From the IMG/VR virus record IMGVR_UViG_3300007214_000006: a DNA stretch of 64,000 nucleotides; one strand, 5' to 3'. Positions 36,768-64,000 of the stretch are shown piece by piece (position 1 is the first letter of the stretch; each line of letters begins with the position of its first letter). The translations under genes and the position numbers were made by a program. This DNA comes from a virus. Taxonomy: Duplodnaviria > Caudoviricetes. The notes beneath the pieces were generated by a model that worked only from the letters and a program-made list of their open reading frames with translations, had not been told where the DNA came from and did no database searches.

Positions 36768-38795
36768 TTATCTATAAATTCCGCTATATATATCATCATT
36801 TGCTCCGCCAACAAACCAATCAGGACCCTTATACATATTCCCATCGGTTTTATAGGAATCTTTTGCATTGGCTCCTATAACATCATAATCAACTGATTTA
36901 AAAGACCTATTTATTTGTCTAGCTAACATATTAGCTATTAATAAAGAGCTATATCTATCTTTTCTCATTCTTCCTCTTTTGCCTCCAGGCAGTTTAGTTT
37001 CTGGAGTATCCCATCTATCTCTTGCGTTAGGCCCAGTGCTGGTTTGAGTCATTACAATAGTTGTTAATTCATTTTTTAATTCTTCTATTTCTAATATACA
37101 CTCACTTAAACTATCATATAATGGACTAAGATCATCAGCAAATATATCTTTGCCATCACTCTCCATAGCTAAACCTAGAGTTAAGTTATCAAAAGCTGGA
37201 AATAATAATACTTTATCTTCTAAGTCTTTACGTAATCCATGATTAGCCTGACTAGTCCATTCTGCTTTGGCAAATTGTACTAATTCGAGAATATGTAATC
37301 CTTGTTGATTGTCTGTATCCTTAGTTTTGTCTAAGTCTATAATTGGCCATATTAATTGTTCGCCTTGTTCCAGTTTTCCTGGATCATGTAAAGCTTCTTC
37401 TATAGCTACTCCACCTCCTTGTGCGTCCATACCTATCTTGATTGGATTAAAAGTCTTCATCAAATTTCTAATTTTTCTGGCACAAAATCCATAAAAATCA
37501 TGATCTTCTACTAATCCTTTTTTGAGTCTTTCTTTAAAATTATTGCGATTTGTAGTCCAGCAATATACTATTTTATTATAATCTGCATTAACTTCAATAA
37601 TTACGATACTAAAATTATCTTGTTCACTTGCTGGGTCTATCCCATATACATATTGTTTTTTATGGTCTCCGCGTACCATGGCTTCGAATATTAATGGTTT
37701 ATCGTTAACTATGATATTTGTATTTGAAACTACACAGCTTTCTATTAAACTTCTACGAAAGAAACCCTCACTATCTTTTACAAAACACGCAGCATATTCC
37801 ATATTATATATGCCAGTATGTATTGTAGCTTTCGCTCTACTAACTTGCTTATCATCCATAAATCCTTTTGGAATTAATTCGTATGGTATTCTAATAATAC
37901 TATAGTCTTTCCAATTAAAATTATTCGGAACATCACCTTTAAAAATATCTTGAAGTTTTTGCTGGTCTCCTTTACTTTCTATAATAGCTTTGTATCTTTT
38001 CCAATAACTAGCAAAATGTTTAAAATCATAATCAGCCGTACCACTAATGATAGCTTGATTTCCCATCTTGGTATTTAATACTTCTAAATCATTATTCCAT
38101 ATTCCAGCTTTAATCATAGCTTGTTTACGAGCTTCTTCCTTTACGTTTTGTATAGGACTAGCGCTAACCGCAGCGAAACCAGCAACAACAGTCTCATAAA
38201 TATCCGGACTAATACTAGCAAACTCGTCCGCAATAATAATATGTGCTCTTAATCCTCTAATTTTGCTGCCATCACCCATAGGGATAGCTATGGTCCAACT
38301 GTCTCCAAGTCTCATTGTGCATCTATCAACATCTCTTCTAGGACCATCATCATTACTGCTAAAAATACTTCTCAAAATTGGACTATTTCTCCAAATAGTT
38401 TCCATATATTCAAAAATAATTTTACTTTGTCTAAATGCTGCTCCCACAACAACAATTTTTGTTCCTGGGAAAAAAGCACATTTTAAAACAGAATATAGGG
38501 CTAATAAAAAACTTTTTCCCCAACCACGACTAGCTACATACATTGGAAATGGTCGTATCCAAAATTCTTGAATAATAGCAATCTGTATAGGATGAAGTTC
38601 TATATTAAATAGTAATTTACAAGTTGTTCCTATATACTTAGGATTTCTTAAAAGTTTTATTAGATGTAAATCTGGATTTTCTATATCCTCTTCTTGTCTG
38701 CGTATCATCGGATTATCAATGATACTCAAAGAAGATAAATCTCCTAATCCAAGCCAAGCGTCATCAAAATTGCTTAACAAATCATGATTGGGCAT
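36768..38795 (-). CDS. terL: Terminase large subunit
   Basis: Walker A ASRGWGKS, Walker B IIADEF, RNase H-like YGIDPASEQD and IGMDAQGGG. Confidence 0.93.
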   Translation of the reverse strand: MPNHDLLSNFDDAWLGLGDLSSLSIIDNPMIRRQEEDIENPDLHLIKLLRNPKYIGTTCKLLFNIELHPIQIAIIQEFWIRPFPMYVASRGWGKSFLLALYSVLKCAFFPGTKIVVVGAAFRQSKIIFEYMETIWRNSPILRSIFSSNDDGPRRDVDRCTMRLGDSWTIAIPMGDGSKIRGLRAHIIIADEFASISPDIYETVVAGFAAVSASPIQNVKEEARKQAMIKAGIWNNDLEVLNTKMGNQAIISGTADYDFKHFASYWKRYKAIIESKGDQQKLQDIFKGDVPNNFNWKDYSIIRIPYELIPKGFMDDKQVSRAKATIHTGIYNMEYAACFVKDSEGFFRRSLIESCVVSNTNIIVNDKPLIFEAMVRGDHKKQYVYGIDPASEQDNFSIVIIEVNADYNKIVYCWTTNRNNFKERLKKGLVEDHDFYGFCARKIRNLMKTFNPIKIGMDAQGGGVAIEEALHDPGKLEQGEQLIWPIIDLDKTKDTDNQQGLHILELVQFAKAEWTSQANHGLRKDLEDKVLLFPAFDNLTLGLAMESDGKDIFADDLSPLYDSLSECILEIEELKNELTTIVMTQTSTGPNARDRWDTPETKLPGGKRGRMRKDRYSSLLIANMLARQINRSFKSVDYDVIGANAKDSYKTDGNMYKGPDWFVGGANDDIYSGIYR

Positions 38796-40103: not shown

Positions 40104-41088
40104 ATTTAGATTTTTCTATATCAGAAATAACCATGTCTTGCACCAAATCATCAAAAGATATTTTTGGCTTCCAATTAAGAACTTTTCTTGCTTTATTAGA
40201 GACACCTCTTAAAAATTCAACTTCGGCTGGTCTATATAACTCTTGATCAATTTCTATATGGTCTAAATAATTTAAGTTAACAACCTTAAAAGCTTTTTCT
40301 AAAAATTCTTCGACAGTATGAGATTCTCCTGTGCTTATAACAAAATCATCCGGAGTATCGCTTGTAAGCATTAGTTTCATAGCCTCAACATAATCTTTAG
40401 CGTGTCCCCAATCTCTTACGGCTTTAATATTACCCAATTTTAATTTAACGTCTGTTTTTTTATTTACTAATTCGCCGATATATTTAGTAATTTTTCTAGT
40501 AACAAAATTCTCTCCTCTTCTTGGACTTTCATGATTGAATAATATGCCACTAGTAGCATATAAATTATATGCTTCTCTATAGATTTGAACCATTCTGTGA
40601 CTAGCTAATTTAGCCACAGCATAAGGACTTTGAGGTAAAAATGCGGTATTTTCATCTTGATATTTTTTGCCATCAATATCTAAAAGATAATTACGACCAA
40701 ACATCTCACTAGTACTAGCTTGATAAAATCTGGTTGTAGAAGAAAATTTTCTTATATTTTCTAAAATATTTATCACTCCTACAGAATTAATTTCGAATGT
40801 TGTTGTTGGTTGCTTAAAGCTAGTTGAAACATGACTTTGAGCTGCTAAATTATAAAAATGATGGGGTCTATGTTTGGTGATTATATTTACACAATCAGAA
40901 GGATCGGTAATATCGAATTCTTCTAATATAATTTTTTTATTATCTAATAAATGTTTTATTCTCTGAAAATTAGTATTACTACTCCGTCTATATAGCCCAA
41001 CAACAGAATAACCAGTGCGCAATAACAATTCTGCTAAATAACTACCGTCTTGACCAGTAATCCCAGTAATAGCTGCTGTTTTCATCAT
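40096..41088 (-). CDS. gmd: GDP-mannose 4,6-dehydratase
   Basis: ITGITGQDGSYLAELL, YNLAAQSHV, YQASTSEMFG, SPYAVAK, FNHESPRRGENFVTRKIT, RDWGHAKDYV. Confidence 0.96.
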   Translation of the reverse strand: MMKTAAITGITGQDGSYLAELLLRTGYSVVGLYRRSSNTNFQRIKHLLDNKKIILEEFDITDPSDCVNIITKHRPHHFYNLAAQSHVSTSFKQPTTTFEINSVGVINILENIRKFSSTTRFYQASTSEMFGRNYLLDIDGKKYQDENTAFLPQSPYAVAKLASHRMVQIYREAYNLYATSGILFNHESPRRGENFVTRKITKYIGELVNKKTDVKLKLGNIKAVRDWGHAKDYVEAMKLMLTSDTPDDFVISTGESHTVEEFLEKAFKVVNLNYLDHIEIDQELYRPAEVEFLRGVSNKARKVLNWKPKISFDDLVQDMVISDIEKSKYE

Positions 41089-41900
41089 GATTCTATAGTA
41101 TCCGGAGTTAAAAAGGGTTTATCTAAAACGCTGTCCTGATATTGATGATATTCGGCTAGTTTATTTTTATTTTTTTCTGTGGCTATAGCTAATATTTCCA
41201 TTTCTTTGCCTTCTTTTTCTCTGATTGTTTCGTCTTCGAGCATTCTTATTAATCCTATCCAACTACTTTTTCCATCTTCTATTCTTTTGATTCTTTGTTC
41301 TCTTGTTGCTTTTAGATCTTTACTAATTTTTTGTTGTTCATTAAGTAATTTTGTATATTCGTTAGTATAATTTGCTATACTATTTCTAGCAAAACTAAGT
41401 TGAGTCTCTAAATTAGCTAGTTTTGGAATATCTCTTTGGTCCTCTGGTTTCTCGTATTCTGTATCAACTAATTTTTGAAGTTTGTCTGTTTCGGCAATAT
41501 GTCTTTTTCTTTCTTTCATGCTTCTATTTATAAGGATATCTATTGTTATAAATTGTTTAATTTGTAGTTCTTCTGCTGGTAAAACATCTTCACGGAACTG
41601 TTGTATTAATCCAACCCAAGTATCTTCAAAGTATTCCAACTCTCCGGTATCACTATCAAATTGTCTAACAATTTCTGACCAAAATGTTTTAGTATATAAT
41701 TTTCTTTTAAGAATTTCTAAATCTTTTAAGTTTTCGCTAGATGATATATTATTTTCTTTAATGTATCTATTAATGGGATCCTTATTTCTATTTAGTGATT
41801 CTGCAATCTCTTCAATAGATAATACCATTATATTATCTCTAATAAATTTTTCTTCTTCTAAGCTTAACTGTCCTCTTTTTTTAGGTAAATTTTTTGACAT
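41085..41900 (-). CDS. HTH plus coiled-coil protein (possible terminase small subunit or regulator)
   Basis: N-terminal LSLEEEKFIRDN...SIEEIAESLNR helix-turn-helix pattern; C-terminal coiled coil; in the operon upstream of TerL. Confidence 0.45.
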   Translation of the reverse strand: MSKNLPKKRGQLSLEEEKFIRDNIMVLSIEEIAESLNRNKDPINRYIKENNISSSENLKDLEILKRKLYTKTFWSEIVRQFDSDTGELEYFEDTWVGLIQQFREDVLPAEELQIKQFITIDILINRSMKERKRHIAETDKLQKLVDTEYEKPEDQRDIPKLANLETQLSFARNSIANYTNEYTKLLNEQQKISKDLKATREQRIKRIEDGKSSWIGLIRMLEDETIREKEGKEMEILAIATEKNKNKLAEYHQYQDSVLDKPFLTPDTIES

Positions 41901-42514
41901 TATTTTTCATTTTTAAGGTTATTAACAATTGATTCTATATGATTTTGTAATTTTTTAAGTTGTTGTTTTGGTATTTTTTCTCCATGCTTTAATCTTAGAT
42001 AACTTTCCCTGAACTCCGGTTGTATATTTTCATCTAATAATTTTATTATTTCGTGATTTTGCATTTTTGAATCAAAACTTTTATTATTACTGATGTCGTA
42101 TTCTATATATGATGGCTGCATAATATTTTTTTTCGCAATATTTCTCGATGCCCAGGTTGAATACAAATCGCAATCGTCTTTATTTGCATATTTGGAACAC
42201 TGGTTTTTTGATTGTTTATAGTTTGGATCATACAAAGGACATGTTAAACAAGGAATGTCTGGTCTTTGGTAATTATTTCTCTTATAATTAAACAATCTAT
42301 TTCTAACATGAGTCCATAAAAAATTTTCTAATGGTCTAGTATTGTCGTATTTTTCTAAACCTTCTAAAGCAAAAATAGCCGCTTGCTGTTTCATATCTTC
42401 AATATCGTGATACCCAAAACGAAACTTATGAGCTAATCTTTTGCCTATATTATCTAGTACTCTTAAAAAATCTTCTTCAGAAACTTGATTATTAGTTTTC
42501 TTTTTTTTGTTCAT
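41900..42514 (-). CDS. Phage sigma70-like factor with a Cys4 insert
   Basis: Region-2-like DIEDMKQQAAIFALEGLEKYD...NFLWTHVRNRLFNYKR, then C-x2-C-x13-C-x8-C, then a short degenerate region 4. Confidence 0.75.
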   Translation of the reverse strand: MNKKKKTNNQVSEEDFLRVLDNIGKRLAHKFRFGYHDIEDMKQQAAIFALEGLEKYDNTRPLENFLWTHVRNRLFNYKRNNYQRPDIPCLTCPLYDPNYKQSKNQCSKYANKDDCDLYSTWASRNIAKKNIMQPSYIEYDISNNKSFDSKMQNHEIIKLLDENIQPEFRESYLRLKHGEKIPKQQLKKLQNHIESIVNNLKNEK

Positions 42515-45577: not shown

Positions 45578-47278
45578 TTATGGTATCAAATCAATAATTA
45601 GTCCTAATGAATAACAACATACTGCTGGGGGTGGCGTATGGGATGGAGTGGGGGTGCAAGTGGGAGTGTGGGTGGGAGTATAAGATGGAGTAATTGAAAT
45701 AGTAGGAGTTAGAGTAGGAGTAATAGTAGTAGTAGGCGTAATAGTAGGAGTAGGCGTAGGAGAAGCACCAATAGTTTTTGATGGCGTGGGTGTCGGAGTC
45801 TGAGTTTTTGTTGTAGTAGTCGTAGGCGTTGGAGTACTTGTTTCACTAATAGTAGGAGTCTGCGTGCTGGTTGGGGTTTTAGTAGGGGTTGTGGTGGGAG
45901 TTGGAGTAGCAGATGGGTTTGGATTTGGGGTTGGCAAATTGGGTATCAAATTATTGCACATACTACCACCAGCACTAAATAAATACGTATCATGATCGTT
46001 ATATGCATCAAGTATTAAAAGAAAATTGTCTGATGCTTCGAATATATATGGAACAGCTTCAGATCCACTGAATCTATTTTTAGGTCCTGATAGTGGTATC
46101 CAACCACTAACATAATCTGTTCCTGGAATAGTAACGAAATTAACTAATTCACTACTATTTAGTAGTATACCATTAACTTTGATGCTAGCTAATGCATTAT
46201 TCTTGATAGCAATTAGAGCATAATATTGTGGACCATCATAATTCATCCGATAAGGAAGTGGAGGAAGTGCTATCGTATATCTTTTTGATAATCTATTAAA
46301 TGGAAAAATAGCATTTATTGATGGATCACCAAGGCAAGCACGCCCTGGGAGGTCTGGTCCACAACCTCTTTTTATTTGATACACAAATATAGGGTATCTT
46401 GCTTTGATGATAGTTGGACTAGTTACAGATAATTTTTCATAACTTTGATATTGTTGTAATGTTACTGATTGATCATTGATAGAAATTATATTATTATTGT
46501 CTACAGATAAAATCTTAAAAGCATCTCCAAGATCACCATTAATACGATTTTGTACATTATTATAATTTTGTGTTAATGGTAAAATAAAAGTTGTATCAAA
46601 ATATTTATATCCATATATTTGACAAATTTGAGGATTACATGCTCCTCCTACCCAAGCATAACACTCGGTGTCTAAAAAAACAGCTATTTTTTCTTTACTT
46701 TCTATCTTAAGTGCCTTATCGAAGCCGCTAGGATATTTAATTTTTACCGCTTGTAAATTTTGTAATGTATATTCTAGAACAGTGTTGCCAGTAACTTTAA
46801 TTGTATTATTATTTGAAGTACTAATTATATTCACATAATTAGCCCACGGTCTGCCAGCTGAAGGAAATGGACATATATAATATAATCTAGATAATTGTTC
46901 TATGGGTAATAATGGTGTTCCATTAGAAGCCGCTTCCATACGCAATAAATAATGACATGTAATAGCTTTATTTGATATTATTTTTATGCCCCTATAACTT
47001 GGTACATGTTCTTGAGAAAAATACATACTAAGATATTGATTGTTAGGCAATTTATAAAAACCTATATTATTAGAGTTTATAATTGCTGTGTAAGCTTCTC
47101 CAAAATATTCAATAGACACCACTGTTCCTGGTTCTCCAAGAAAGTATATATAATTTTCAAAAAGATGGTAGAACGCAGGCAAATCAACCAAATAGTGACC
47201 TGGAAAAGCAAAATAAAATTCTTTACTTAAACAAGTGTCTGTCTGTGATTGTGCTTGTATGTTATTTGAAATATCCAT
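45578..47278 (-). CDS. IgGFc-binding (FCGBP N-terminal)-like domain protein with a long PT linker
   Basis: ALKIESKEKIAVF, FKILSVDNNNIISIN...PTIIKARYPIFVYQ...GDPSINAIFPFNRLSKRYTI...ASIKVNG; ends CCYSLGLIIDLIP. Confidence 0.65.
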   Translation of the reverse strand: MDISNNIQAQSQTDTCLSKEFYFAFPGHYLVDLPAFYHLFENYIYFLGEPGTVVSIEYFGEAYTAIINSNNIGFYKLPNNQYLSMYFSQEHVPSYRGIKIISNKAITCHYLLRMEAASNGTPLLPIEQLSRLYYICPFPSAGRPWANYVNIISTSNNNTIKVTGNTVLEYTLQNLQAVKIKYPSGFDKALKIESKEKIAVFLDTECYAWVGGACNPQICQIYGYKYFDTTFILPLTQNYNNVQNRINGDLGDAFKILSVDNNNIISINDQSVTLQQYQSYEKLSVTSPTIIKARYPIFVYQIKRGCGPDLPGRACLGDPSINAIFPFNRLSKRYTIALPPLPYRMNYDGPQYYALIAIKNNALASIKVNGILLNSSELVNFVTIPGTDYVSGWIPLSGPKNRFSGSEAVPYIFEASDNFLLILDAYNDHDTYLFSAGGSMCNNLIPNLPTPNPNPSATPTPTTTPTKTPTSTQTPTISETSTPTPTTTTTKTQTPTPTPSKTIGASPTPTPTITPTTTITPTLTPTISITPSYTPTHTPTCTPTPSHTPPPAVCCYSLGLIIDLIP

Positions 47279-47295
47279 AAATTTATTTTTCTATT

Positions 47296-48030
47296 TTAAG
47301 ATACATATTGGCATGAGTATAATCTAACAATAGCTGTGGATGCTTCATCACTAAAAAATGGTATTTCTATATCGGTTTGTAGACTGGTAATAGTGTGTAT
47401 ATTAATCCAATCAGATAATGGTATAGACATATTATCAAAAAATTTAATCTGTAATAATAAACATACTGTTGGAATAGCAGAAACTATAACACGAACTTTG
47501 TGTACAGAGTTTTCAAAAAAATAACTAATACTATTAGTGAAATCACACATCTCTGGTGGTCCAATGATTGGATCATCAGGCTCTATCCTGCAATCTAATG
47601 TGTGTTCAGATTTATTAACTGTGGTAAATTGATAATTTATCGGATAAGATAATAAACTATCAGAAAATCTTGTCCAATGAGTATTACCAGCTTGAAATAC
47701 TATAGAAATTTTTTGATTACATAAATTATATGAATCTATAATTGGATAGTTTTCATAAAATTTATTTGTAAATATATTATATGAAAAATTTCTAATAGAT
47801 TGAGGAGTCCAATCAATAGTTACTGATCTAGCGTCGTTGTTTGATGTGAGATTGTTATCTTTATAAGTAATACTATTAAAATTTTGATCAAATAGTGTTT
47901 TATGATATCTTATATTATAATTAGTATTTTGTAAAATCCCAGTATTTTTTATTGTTTCTGAACGATTGTAATATGAGGAATAGTTCTGACTATTTATAGG
48001 TAAACTGCTATCAATAATATATTTAGACAT
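47296..48030 (-). CDS. Two-domain protein: family-A N-domain plus family-B domain
   Basis: N-terminus matches 43891..45507 (RYHKTL, ARSVTI.WTPQSIRNF); C-terminus CLLLQIKFFD...PLSDW...VRLYSC matches the N-termini of 48053..50164 and 50358..51713. Confidence 0.75.
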   Translation of the reverse strand: MSKYIIDSSLPINSQNYSSYYNRSETIKNTGILQNTNYNIRYHKTLFDQNFNSITYKDNNLTSNNDARSVTIDWTPQSIRNFSYNIFTNKFYENYPIIDSYNLCNQKISIVFQAGNTHWTRFSDSLLSYPINYQFTTVNKSEHTLDCRIEPDDPIIGPPEMCDFTNSISYFFENSVHKVRVIVSAIPTVCLLLQIKFFDNMSIPLSDWINIHTITSLQTDIEIPFFSDEASTAIVRLYSCQYVS

Positions 48031-61043: not shown

Positions 61044-61355
61044 TTAGTTTTTTATTCTTTTGGGTGTGGGTTTATGAATATTATTCGATAATGGCACTAT
61101 TGAAGATAATTTTATAACATCTATAATATCATTGATTTTAGGACTCTTAGAATCATCACTACTAATAATATAGCTATTTGATAATATACGATCATTAGCA
61201 AATAATAATAACGTGTTGGTACCAGGAAGATTAATATCTGGTAAATCTATGGTATATGGGGAATAATAAATGTTCTGATTGCTTTGTTTTAGTTGTTCAG
61301 AATTTATTTCTGAAATGTTATAGTCTCTTTGGTATGCTATGTTGTATAGGTTCAT
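61044..61355 (-). CDS. Small family-D protein, first gene of the Cys-rich late cluster
   Basis: FANDRIL motif; GGTGTA motif at 61401-61406. Confidence 0.65.
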   Translation of the reverse strand: MNLYNIAYQRDYNISEINSEQLKQSNQNIYYSPYTIDLPDINLPGTNTLLLFANDRILSNSYIISSDDSKSPKINDIIDVIKLSSIVPLSNNIHKPTPKRIKN

Positions 61356-61658
61356 GTTGTTTTTTAAAAATAATGATGAATAAAAATACTATTAAAATAG
61401 TACACCTTATCATTTTAAAATAGGTTATGCAGATTGTGTGGGTTTGTGCTCATGGTGCTATGCATCTTATAGATATTAGAAAAATATATCTATGTTACCA
61501 GAATAGTAAGGATCATAAGAATAGTATTATGGGTTTAATAGATAGGATTAGGTGATACTTTTATATTTTTGAGTGCTTATTGTTTATGGATGTCCTTGCG
61601 ATTTTTATAAATACTAGAATATTCAAATAAGAAATGAAAAAACCCCCTAGTTCATATA

Positions 61659-61850
61659 CGCCCGCATTTTTGACGTAAGTTATTGCCTCGCAAGGGTTTG
61701 CGTCAAGTTCAGATAGCAAATGGTGTGCCAAATGGCCAAAAAATGTTTGGCATGATATTTGCTGCTAGCAACCTTACGGTATTGTAAGCAAGATTTTTGT
61801 TGACCTCTCAAGATGGTTTGGTATAATGCCGATATAAGAGAAAAGGGAAA
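61659..61850 (+). repeat. Early regulatory cassette, copy 1 (lacks palindrome A)
   Basis: CGCCCGCATTTTTGA, palindrome B 61674-61702, sigma54-like pair 61715-61731(-)/61747-61763(+), CTTAC-N6-GTAAG, TTGACC-N16-TATAAT (61800-61827). Confidence 0.85.
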
Positions 61851-61853
61851 CAA

Positions 61854-62009
61854 ATGCTCAACATCTACAACGACTACAACGATCCCGATCAAACCTATGA
61901 TGAGAATGTAGAAACTATCTGGATCAGTCCCTGCTGCGGATTCGAGGTAGAAAATACCGAAACCGTTTGCCCAAACTGCGACCATACCATTGTGCCTCTT
62001 GCCTCTTGA
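61854..62009 (+). CDS. Small acidic zinc-ribbon protein (51 aa; not in the ORF track)
   Basis: MLNIYNDYNDPDQTYDENVETIWISPCCGFEVENTETVCPNCDHTIVPLAS, directly after the cassette-1 promoter and RBS. Confidence 0.7.
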   Translation: MLNIYNDYNDPDQTYDENVETIWISPCCGFEVENTETVCPNCDHTIVPLAS

Positions 62010-62060
62010 CTCTGAATCTTTTCTCGGTTAGACTTACCCTAAACCCCAAAGGATAGCATC

Positions 62061-62267
62061 ATGAGCAACGACTTTGTTTACAACATGAGCGAAATCAACG
62101 AAGAGGAAATCGTGAAGGGATGGGATGAAATCAACGACGAGGCGGATTATATTCCGGGTTTGGACGATGGGGAGGGATATGATCCGATCATGGGCGACGA
62201 TGACGAATGGCTCGACACGGACGACGAATGGCTCGACGATTTTCAGGGCGAGGAAGATTTTGCCTGA
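62061..62267 (+). CDS. Highly acidic small protein (DNA-mimic candidate)
   Basis: 27 of 68 residues are D/E, with one K and no R; DDEWLD occurs twice. Confidence 0.7.
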   Translation: MSNDFVYNMSEINEEEIVKGWDEINDEADYIPGLDDGEGYDPIMGDDDEWLDTDDEWLDDFQGEEDFA

Positions 62268-62304
62268 AATAAATATTCCGGCATAGCGTTTGCTGGGCAA
62301 GATC

Positions 62305-62540
62305 GACGTAAAGCCTTACGCTATAAGGACTTACGGCGATTTTTCGCCCGCCGAATCGACGTAAGTTGTTATGCATCAACACTTTACGTTCAATGGCCAC
62401 AGCAAACCTTGTGCCAAAAATACTTTATTCTATGGTACGCTATTTGCTCTCGCAACCTTACGATATTGTAAGGAAAGATTTTGCTTGCAAGTTGAAGATA
62501 GACCCGTATAATGCCGATATAGAAAGAAACGGAGAAAGAA
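62305..62540 (+). repeat. Early regulatory cassette, copy 2
   Basis: Palindromes A 62307-62335 and B 62360-62388, sigma54-like pair 62401-62417(-)/62432-62448(+), TTGCAA-N16-TATAAT (62485-62512), GGAG RBS. Confidence 0.9.
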
Positions 62541-62542
62541 AA

Positions 62543-62779
62543 ATGGAAATGATCGTGGGACAGGTTGCCAAGGTTGAATACGCTACGGGCGAGAAGTTTA
62601 TCGGTGAGATTGTGAAGGTTCGCACGATGCCCGAACAAATCGAGGTTTTCGGCGTTGGCCCTACTGGCGTGTTGCAGAATCGTGTGCTGTTCACGGTTCA
62701 CGACGAGAGCGTAGGCTATCGTTCGCTCTATGTTGACAAGTGTGCTAGAATCGAAACGTTGACCCTTCAAACCCTCTGA
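62543..62779 (+). CDS. Small beta-rich protein (78 aa; start corrected from 62366)
   Basis: MEMIVGQVAKVEYATGEKFIGEIVKV...; ATG 8 nt after GGAG and downstream of the cassette-2 promoter. The longer track ORF runs through the repeat. Confidence 0.7.
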   Translation: MEMIVGQVAKVEYATGEKFIGEIVKVRTMPEQIEVFGVGPTGVLQNRVLFTVHDESVGYRSLYVDKCARIETLTLQTL

Positions 62780-62790
62780 AAAGAAAAAAA

Positions 62791-62991
62791 ATGAGCGTCT
62801 CCGAAATGATCTGCGAACTCGAATCCTATGGTATGATCGTTCAGCGTGTGCCGAACCAACCGAACACTCTGCACGTTGACGGCTACCATCCCCCTCATTG
62901 TAAGGGGTTGCCCGATTGGCTATGGGAATGCCCCGGTTGGGGGGTATCGTCGTGTGGCATTTCAAGGGTATTCCTGTTCAGGGTAGGATAA
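62791..62991 (+). CDS. Hypothetical protein (66 aa)
   Basis: ORF track; follows the previous gene after 11 nt. Confidence 0.55.
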   Translation: MSVSEMICELESYGMIVQRVPNQPNTLHVDGYHPPHCKGLPDWLWECPGWGVSSCGISRVFLFRVG

Positions 62992-63014
62992 CCCCCCATT
63001 AGGGGTACGAGCTT

Positions 63015-63248
63015 GATGTAAAGCCTTACGCTGTAAGGACTTACAACAAGTTTTCGCCCGCATTTTTGACGTAAGTGCTTACAGGATAACGACTTAGAGC
63101 AAATCGCCATAGCAAACAGCATACCAAGGAATAAAAGTTTCTTTGGTACAACTTTTGCTGCTAGTAACCTTACGATATTGTAAGAAAGATTTTGCTTGCA
63201 ATCTAAAGTGACCGCTGTATAATGCCGATATAGAAAGCAAAGGAGAAA
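63015..63248 (+). repeat. Early regulatory cassette, copy 3
   Basis: A 63017-63045, B 63070-63098, sigma54-like pair 63111-63127(-)/63143-63159(+), TTGCAA-N16-TATAAT (63196-63223), AGGAG RBS. Confidence 0.9.
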
Positions 63249-63249
63249 G

Positions 63250-63465
63250 ATGATGAACGAAAATATCAAGAGTGCGATTCGGCAGATTTGGGGAAGCGAG
63301 AGTCACCAGATTTCCCTGCTGCTAACGCCGCAAGGTGTGTTGTATGCCGAGTGCGAGTCTACGATGGATCGTCGCAGGCTCACGGAAAGCAACTACCGTG
63401 AAGTGCTGAACGATATGTTCTACGATTACTGCGTGGAAAACGCGGCTTGGATGGGAGTCTCATGA
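63250..63465 (+). CDS. Hypothetical early protein (71 aa)
   Basis: ORF track; AGGAG RBS; downstream of the cassette-3 promoter. Confidence 0.7.
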   Translation: MMNENIKSAIRQIWGSESHQISLLLTPQGVLYAECESTMDRRRLTESNYREVLNDMFYDYCVENAAWMGVS

Positions 63466-63481
63466 CCACCTACTAGGGGGG

Positions 63482-63510
63482 TTGCGGAGACAAAAAAAGT
63501 TTCGTACACT
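63482..63510 (+). promoter_or_regulatory. Possible weak sigma70-type promoter
   Basis: TTGCGG-N17-TACACT upstream of 63537. Confidence 0.35.
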
Positions 63511-63536
63511 ACATCATCACCAAGAGGAAAAAAGAA

Positions 63537-63866
63537 ATGACCACCAAGTTCAAGATCATCGAAGATGCCAAGCGTCAGGCTCGCATGTGCTTTGTGGGAA
63601 TCGCAATCCCTCACCAGCCTACGCTTGCTGCGGGAGAGTACGGCCCGATTCGTTCGGAAAAGATTCTCAAGTTCAATCGCTCCGCGTTGCGGAATATCGG
63701 CAAGAAAAAGATAGAAAAGGCTGACCCCCGCTTCAAGGGGGGTGACGATCTCATGATCGTGAAGGTTGGCAAGCCCGGCTCCGCCGAAAGGGTGGCCGCT
63801 CTGGCCGAACAGTATGCTGCGATCCTCGCCTGCGGCGAGGAGGTATCCCCCTTCTCGGAGGGGTGA
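63537..63866 (+). CDS. Hypothetical early protein (109 aa)
   Basis: ORF track; GAGG RBS. Confidence 0.7.
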   Translation: MTTKFKIIEDAKRQARMCFVGIAIPHQPTLAAGEYGPIRSEKILKFNRSALRNIGKKKIEKADPRFKGGDDLMIVKVGKPGSAERVAALAEQYAAILACGEEVSPFSEG

Positions 63867-63894
63867 ACAAGCGTACACTAGTGTACAAAGATTC

Positions 63895-64000
63895 GACGTA
63901 AACCCTTGTGGCACAAGGACTTATGGCGATTTTTCGCCCGCATTTTTGACGTAAGTGCTTGTGACATAACGACTTACGTTCAATGCTAATAGCAAACCGC
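63895..64000 (+). repeat. Early regulatory cassette, copy 4 (truncated by the window end)
   Basis: A 63897-63925, B 63950-63978, and the start of the AGCAAA element at 63991, with the same spacings as the other copies. Confidence 0.88.

Follow-up and report, generated by a model that had tools for sequence, protein, structure and literature searches.

Which protein reads the sigma-54-like boxes that stand back to back in the early-gene control region of an uncultured freshwater Caudoviricetes phage? The question is raised by IMG/VR record IMGVR_UViG_3300007214_000006, of which we analyzed a stretch of 64,000 nucleotides (the window), comprising bases 57333-121332 of a 122,965-bp linear contig with a completeness estimate of 82%. 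From window position ~61640 to the contig end runs an array of small plus-strand open reading frames (ORFs) with one repeated regulatory cassette ahead of each, and the first cassettes carry boxes of the -24/-12 type that sigma-54 (RpoN) recognizes in bacteria. Our sequence comparisons suggest, at a probability of about one half, that these boxes are docking sites for the host sigma-54 holoenzyme within mobile early-promoter cassettes.

Sigma-54-like boxes at the start of the early array

A first-pass annotation, made from the DNA letters alone, had listed seven boxes with a GG-N10-GC core. Direct reading and a pattern search bore out the coordinates and the spacing of all seven (Table 1), and with an eighth box at the window end the spacing was exact in 8/8. 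We observed six matches to the strict pattern TGGYAY-N5-TTGCT in the window against 0.27 expected, and 0/100 shuffles reached six. The whole contig held a single further strict match, on the minus strand at genome 121323-121338 (window 63991-64006), and the remaining 119 kb, late arm included, had none. Two reverse boxes in the window match the extended consensus TGGCAC-N5-TTGCW throughout, and the others differ from it by C/T changes. Match quality was equal to or better than that of the confirmed Escherichia coli promoters glnK, prpB, zraS and pspG, in a comparison made by eye. The observation is real, conserved and far above chance.

Six of the boxes form three reverse-forward pairs, separated by A/T-rich spacers of 14-15 bp (15, 14 and 15 bp in order). 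The same annotation had placed such boxes upstream of each sigma-70 promoter. The three sigma-70 promoters are sound (consensus matches 11/12, 10/12 and 10/12), and the arrangement holds for the first three cassettes; it fails at the fourth, which has a reverse box only, and at the next four, which lie beyond the window and have no boxes. Following the rule applied to E. coli sites by Bonocora et al. (2015, PMC4591121), we placed predicted starts 19 bp from the motif center. A look-up of RNA runs that contain this stretch returned none. The predicted starts of the three paired forward boxes fall 1-2 nt into a palindrome and ~60 nt upstream of the sigma-70 start. Those of their reverse partners point into the repeat region, antisense to the preceding gene.

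Conservation in relatives and in unrelated phages

We found the cassette in more than 50 related viral contigs. Its palindrome AACCTTACGRTATTGTAAG occurred at 47 IMG/VR loci, on contigs of 9-244 kb and always in the same cassette context, and also in four phage contigs binned into freshwater metagenome-assembled genomes (MAGs). Among ~100 non-identical cassettes, 62 had no box, 17 a forward box only, 8 a reverse box only and 12 both. Placement was nearly constant: the forward box starts 24-26 nt ahead of the palindrome CTTAC (24-25 nt in 26/27), the reverse box 31-32 nt ahead of it when alone and 56-58 nt when a forward box is present, and box starts within pairs are 32-34 bp apart, about three helical turns. 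In complete relatives, boxes occur only within the first ~4 kb of the array, which extends over more than 10 kb. With three full pairs, the present contig stands at the rich end of this range.

To avoid circularity, cassettes were selected on one element and the other element was scored. Selection on TTGC at a fixed position returned GG at -24 in 26/28 cassettes, and selection on TGG returned GC at -12 in 25/30. When TTGC was allowed anywhere upstream, GG stood at the exact offset in 33/89 (2-7 at other offsets); on the reverse strand, selection on GCAA gave CC at the exact offset in 29/96 (1-8 at neighboring offsets). Each element thus predicts the other across cassettes, which upholds the sigma-54-type consensus that the first-pass annotation had named. 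The box flanks carried almost no information. The lineage consensus is tttTGGCAYGATATTTGCT for the forward box and TGGCACAGCATTTGCT for the reverse box; the two have only the -24 and -12 blocks in common, and their spacers differ (GATAT in the forward box, AGCAT or ACCAT in the reverse).

Natural variants in contigs from four freshwater studies fell at the C/T position after GG (-23) and in the box spacers. Position 63147, for example, is C in three other freshwater data sets, which turns TGGTAC into TGGCAC, and a 1-bp insertion occurred in the spacer between boxes. No variant in GG or GC was present among those listed, a small sample outside which 141 further differences lie. As judged from this pattern of conservation, the boxes are selected recognition sites of the sigma-54 (-24/-12) type.

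Tight box clusters were also present, in every orientation, in more than 100 unrelated viral contigs, and the reversed control pattern returned 0 loci in the same viral collection. Most clustered loci belong to unrelated phages of 39-63% G+C, with arrays of 2-11 boxes in control regions. Scans of the collection returned 32 divergent (back-to-back), 15 convergent (face-to-face) and 69 tandem loci. The tandem, divergent and convergent loci stand at about 2:1:0.5, near the random orientation of independent units. Start-to-start distances of neighboring boxes in the tandem arrays of other phages clustered at ~17-18, 26-28, 36-37, 46, 56 and 66 bp, roughly helical-turn steps; the 29-37 bp class is inflated by the way in which the loci were found.

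These counts bear on whether a pair is one signal or two. The first-pass annotation had offered a single dimeric factor as an alternative, and the three cassettes of the window do carry an imperfect palindrome of ~49 bp with an A/T-rich center and box starts 32-34 bp apart, as an operator for a symmetric dimer or tetramer might. We nevertheless regard that account as very improbable. A box stands alone in 25/37 site-bearing cassettes, the halves agree only at the sigma-54 contacts and have different spacers, a natural variant carries an extra base pair in the central spacer, and the orientation ratio is that given above. Because singles outnumber pairs, the halves are asymmetric outside the sigma-54 contacts and the spacing tolerates an indel, each 16-bp box appears to be an autonomous asymmetric signal and not half of a dimer operator.

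The boxes might also have no binding function at all, being passengers copied by cassette duplication and recombination, or marks of recombination joints. Cassettes do recombine: metagenome contigs carry cassette-to-cassette joints at 61763>62454, directly after a forward box, at 61842>63543, at 62954>63893 and at other positions. The boxes are also optional and fall into lineage-specific subtypes. What makes the passenger account improbable is that core positions stay fixed in diverged cassettes while the flanks, and the spacers of reverse and window boxes, vary; that the 10-bp spacing is exactly kept; that the same box occurs in unrelated phages with different cassettes; and that the reversed control yields nothing.

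Candidate readers of the box

Host sigma-54 is the simplest candidate reader because the boxes agree with its consensus at all defined positions, no less closely than confirmed E. coli promoters do, and because the GG and TTGC blocks are never swapped. Since the same box occurs in unrelated phages, a reader conserved across bacteria would be the simplest account, and the occurrence of single boxes in either orientation fits an asymmetric single-site reader. A Bacteroidota-type promoter reading of ATTTG was rejected, as the box does not fit TAnnTTTG. The phage encodes a sigma-70-family factor of 204 amino acids (41900-42514, minus strand) with a Sigma70_r2 domain, which scored 23.8 bits by hmmscan, just under the 24-bit cut-off, and 25.8 bits in the genome search. 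Its gene is kept a few kb from the array start in 4/4 complete relatives searched. This protein is probably a late-gene sigma factor. It is unlikely to read the boxes, since the late arm has none of them and blocks spaced 11 bp apart do not fit -35/-10 recognition.

Several points weigh against docking of sigma-54 holoenzyme. Neither a PF00158 activator nor an RpoN domain was found in the present contig or in five complete relatives. A box is missing from 62% of cassettes, and wherever one is present a strong sigma-70 promoter accompanies it; the boxes are therefore dispensable for early expression. Reverse boxes have no gene to drive: ahead of them lie terminators and the antisense strand of the gene before. 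The forward spacer GATAT is conserved beyond what sigma-54 requires, perhaps through common descent or because a second constraint acts on it. In other phages, neighboring boxes may be separated by as little as 15-19 bp, with ~10-bp phasing, which would not leave room for several holoenzymes at once. Finally, docking presupposes rpoN in the host.

With regard to the missing activator, a recent preprint describes a phage AAA+ protein that resembles enhancer-binding proteins and lacks the GAFTGA motif; an unconventional phage activator is therefore conceivable. A T7-like polymerase was searched for and not found. For the back-to-back pairs, the footprint of the sigma-54 closed complex spans about -34 to -5. 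Taking this general figure, two holoenzymes on a pair whose -24 positions are 22 bp apart would just abut.

Some of these points would suit another DNA-binding protein, either an early or middle regulator of the phage or a host protein, such as a winged-helix response regulator, that binds two tandem T(G/T)GC(A/T) repeats spaced by one helical turn. Such a protein would turn the early cassettes down or off, or adjust their output, and any resemblance of the boxes to sigma-54 sites would be coincidental. The TGGCA and TTGCT blocks look like a direct repeat of 11-bp period, the conservation of GATAT is unusual, an encoded activator was not found, and the 15-19 bp distances with their phasing suit a small protein better than a holoenzyme. 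Further operator-like palindromes in the cassettes mean that dedicated regulators probably exist. We nonetheless consider such a reader, the chief rival to sigma-54, rather unlikely: GG comes first and TTGC second in all of more than 100 sites, the match spans all 11-12 positions of the sigma-54 consensus, and the same box in unrelated phages of very different G+C content would need one shared phage protein family.

Known systems place docking by sigma-54 in context. Bacterial sigma-54 promoters (glnK, pspG, zraS; TGGCAC-N5-TTGCW) have the identical bipartite consensus, with GG and GC 10 bp apart, and a T-rich run ahead of GC is present in both. Differences from these promoters are that no activator gene and no dedicated upstream activator site were found in the phage, that its boxes stand back to back with no space for an activator site between them, and that they always lie beside a strong sigma-70 promoter, half of them facing no gene. 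E. coli ChIP-seq (chromatin immunoprecipitation with sequencing) found that many genuine sigma-54 sites are intragenic or antisense and give no detectable transcript (Bonocora et al. 2015, PMC4591121). Such non-canonical sites are a model for the reverse boxes, although they are scattered singly in the chromosome whereas the phage boxes are packed in pairs or arrays in a control region. In Enterobacteriaceae, glmY and glmZ have dual sigma-70/sigma-54 promoters for constitutive and regulated expression (PMC3045617). As at glmY, a sigma-70 promoter and a predicted sigma-54-type promoter stand ahead of one gene here; the glmY promoters, however, overlap and use the same start base, with GlrR and integration host factor (IHF) sites upstream, whereas in the phage cassettes ~60 nt separate the predicted sigma-54 start from the sigma-70 start downstream.

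Reportedly, the virulent Pseudomonas phage YuA draws on host sigma-54 in addition to sigma-70 (Ceyssens et al. 2008, cited in PMC10914365); it has no activator of its own, and none was found in the present phage. We examined the three YuA (NC_010116) promoter-trap fragments annotated as active with a '-24/-12 consensus' (38392-38570, 40888-41035 and 47152-47312) and found no TGGCAY-N5-TTGCW in them even with one mismatch. The YuA sites stand singly in the late structural region and depart far from the consensus, whereas the present boxes are near-consensus, paired and limited to the first early cassettes. The published precedent is a much weaker motif match than the boxes described here. Our literature search found no paper on paired or arrayed sigma-54 boxes in phage control regions.

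Cassettes, genome setting and proposed role

The cassette measures ~250 bp and reads, 5' to 3', repeat arms, reverse box, spacer, forward box, palindrome, sigma-70 promoter and small ORFs (Table 1). Its repeat part consists of ~90 bp of ACGTAAG/CTTACG arms flanking GGCGAtttttCGCC; the palindrome CTTACGRTATTGTAAG begins 8-9 nt past the forward box; and the sigma-70 promoter has a conserved GYCGATATA start region followed by a purine-rich ribosome-binding site. One or two small ORFs follow in each cassette, none with a Pfam or PHROG family. No Rfam family was found in 61300-64000. One peptide motif, (E/D)ADYIPGLDDGE, recurs at or close to the C-terminal end of several small early proteins that otherwise differ and are encoded immediately ahead of a cassette, at window 62140-62180 and in five viral loci. 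The motif could be a functional tail that these proteins share, or it could mark the 5' edge of a recombining unit.

Table 1. Boxes and cassette features at the start of the early array (window coordinates)
Feature	Position	Strand	Predicted start	Basis or remark
G+C boundary between late arm (~33% G+C, minus-strand genes) and early-cassette array (45-48% G+C)	61630-61660	.		G+C profile
Reverse sigma-54-like box 1, TTGGCACACCATTTGCT	61715-61731	-	~61704	Direct reading and pattern search; start toward late-gene arm
Forward sigma-54-like box 1, TTGGCATGATATTTGCT	61747-61763	+	~61774	Direct reading and pattern search
Proximal palindrome 1, CTTACGGTATTGTAAG	61773-61788	.		CTTAC-N6-GTAAG; most conserved cassette element
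Sigma-70 promoter 1: TTGACC, 16 nt, TG-extended TATAAT, then conserved GCCGATATA	61800-61827	+		Consensus match
Cassette 1 ORFs: 51-aa (amino acid) Cys-pair protein (61854-62009), 68-aa very acidic protein (62061-62267)	61854-62267	+		
Extra forward box, CCGGCATAGCGTTTGCT	62278-62294	+	~62305	CGG in place of TGG; directly 3' of the stop codon of the acidic ORF
Repeat region, ACGTAAG/CTTACG arms and GGCGAtttttCGCC	62303-62392	.		Terminator-like fold; in nearly all full cassettes
Reverse sigma-54-like box 2, TTGGCACAAGGTTTGCT	62401-62417	-	~62390	Start into repeat region, antisense to upstream gene
Forward sigma-54-like box 2, ATGGTACGCTATTTGCT	62432-62448	+	~62459	
Palindrome 2 (62457-62472) and sigma-70 promoter 2 (TTGCAA 62485-62490, TATAAT 62507-62512)	62457-62512	+		
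Cassette 2 ORFs: 62543-62779 (78 aa), 62791-62991 (66 aa)	62543-62991	+		No family
Reverse sigma-54-like box 3, TTGGTATGCTGTTTGCT	63111-63127	-	~63100	
Forward sigma-54-like box 3, TTGGTACAACTTTTGCT	63143-63159	+	~63170	
Palindrome 3 (63169-63184) and sigma-70 promoter 3 (63196-63223)	63169-63223	+		
Cassette 3 ORFs: 63250-63465 (71 aa), 63537-63866 (109 aa)	63250-63866	+		No family
Reverse box 4, first 10 bases TGGCATGCGGTTTGCT	63991-64000	-		Cut by window end; genome 121323-121338; no forward partner

The repeat region 62303-62392 folds as a single long structure (-34.9 kcal/mol, z -4.5), and an equivalent terminator-like element lies at 63925-63938. Each full cassette has four ACGTAAG/CTTACG arms with several possible pairings (62303-62392, 63017-63100 and 63893-63985; z about -4.5), and the proximal CTTAC-N6-GTAAG palindrome contributes two further half-sites. 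The six half-sites per cassette look like an operator system for a candidate regulator. The first-pass annotation had taken the upstream palindromes for enhancers, and they do lie at about -70 to -130, distances typical of activator sites. We did not find this convincing: the palindromes occur in essentially all full cassettes, including the box-free majority (62%), and part of the region resembles the terminator of the preceding gene. They probably have a role of their own, as operators for a candidate regulator and in termination. The idea that the forward transcript opens with a 5' hairpin was dropped, because the stem is weak (-7 to -9 kcal/mol) and the predicted start already lies 1-2 nt into the left arm.

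The cassettes resemble the promoter-early stem-loops (PeSLs) of T4-type phages, in which repeated units of a strong sigma-70 promoter and a stem-loop separate small early ORFs that are non-essential, and allow modules to be shuffled (Arbiol et al. 2010, PMC2839356). Here, too, a strong sigma-70 early promoter and a stem-loop terminator are repeated between small ORFs, and recombination between units shuffles genes, as seen in the cassette-to-cassette joints. In other freshwater populations, whole cassettes with their genes are skipped or swapped at cassette boundaries, a PeSL-like shuffling, and the gene content behind the same cassettes varies between relatives. The present cassettes are, however, longer and have three CTTACG-type palindromes, PeSLs have not been described with sigma-54 boxes, and this phage is not T4-like, whereas PeSLs are defined from hyperplastic regions of T4-type myoviruses. 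The cassettes work like PeSLs, yet they are not a member of that class.

The array begins at a sharp compositional step. About 119 kb of the contig has ~32% G+C and contains replication genes and minus-strand structural genes, including a terminase, a major head protein and a 3965-aa ORF; from window ~61640 the G+C content rises to 45-48%. We observed two compositional arms in all, ~33% G+C (late) and 42-48% (the early-cassette array and beyond). The same step, from 33% to 43%, occurs at the start of the same array in 5/5 complete relatives (204-244 kb, four with direct terminal repeats). A closer look at one of these relatives showed the same boundary sequence, aaaaaaccccctaag, and a contig of an independent run reads across the junction. 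Together these rule out an assembly chimera at the step. Whereas the present contig has no tRNA genes, complete relatives have 9-13, mostly clustered ~9-20 kb from the cassette sites in the higher-G+C arm (at 116-118 kb in one of them). The present contig probably has none because it ends 4 kb into that arm. On these comparisons, the lineage appears to be one of freshwater phages whose complete members measure 204-244 kb.

Indications of the host were few. A 2.1-Mb Burkholderiaceae MAG with rpoN has two cassette contigs of 1.2 kb in its bin, a weak hint given short-contig binning, and rpoN was present in 9/13 genomes searched (this MAG and 12 relatives). A 7-kb cassette contig was binned into a Gammaproteobacteria MAG; no rpoN was found in that MAG or in its seven closest listed relatives, although binning is weak evidence. 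A search of 400 Burkholderiaceae-family genomes with 20 kb of DNA gave no spacer-like match; all that it returned were low-complexity repeats and phage contigs of the Burkholderiaceae MAG itself. A palindrome scan of the genome collection gave 10 matches. Four lay in phage contigs that had been binned into MAGs and six were due to chance, in keeping with the roughly nine chance matches that we estimate for a 19-mer in 596 Gb. The terminase had only ~26% identity by tblastn, to phages of Bacillus (siphophages) and Staphylococcus and to one Microcystis phage, DNA similarity to isolated phages gave nothing useful, and a protein-atlas look-up of the sugar dehydratase returned viral clusters only. 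No psbA was found in the five complete relatives, which is a weak argument against a cyanophage. A Bacteroidota host seems unlikely in view of the consensus sigma-70 promoters and the strong Shine-Dalgarno sequences.

We infer sigma-54 binding, and every functional consequence that follows, from the sequence. At a forward box, host RNA polymerase with sigma-54 would dock as a silent closed complex ~60 bp upstream of the sigma-70 promoter, and a reverse box would seat a second sigma-54 polymerase back to back with it. As no activator gene was found in the phage, forward boxes would fire only with an active host enhancer-binding protein or an unrecognized phage factor. The first few early cassettes would in this way gain a second, condition-dependent route of transcription beside the constitutive sigma-70 route. 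Reverse boxes might yield short antisense RNAs that cross the terminator region before the cassette, or simply hold polymerase. The boxes would then act either as conditional auxiliary promoters or as non-productive parking or sponge sites. In the sponge version, the arrays would capture sigma-54 polymerase and silence sigma-54-dependent host responses as the genome replicates. More broadly, it is possible, if doubtful, that many phage lineages, that of the present phage among them, place clusters of sigma-54 docking sites in early control regions without an activator of their own, where the sites would park or sponge polymerase, form protein boundaries that separate cassettes, or couple early expression to host nutrition.

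Sigma-54 promoters are regarded as a tightly controlled bacterial device, and to our knowledge only isolated phage cases have been described. In the present lineage, which is widespread among freshwater phages, near-consensus boxes are conserved within mobile early-gene cassettes. The sigma-54 system controls nitrogen status, motility, envelope stress and RNA repair. Should sigma-54 polymerase bind the boxes, they would be an undescribed means by which a phage senses or manipulates this part of host transcription. Should another protein read them, that protein would mimic one of the best-conserved bacterial promoter signals. Parking of polymerase or nutritional coupling, if true, would amount to a general phage strategy that we found in no paper.

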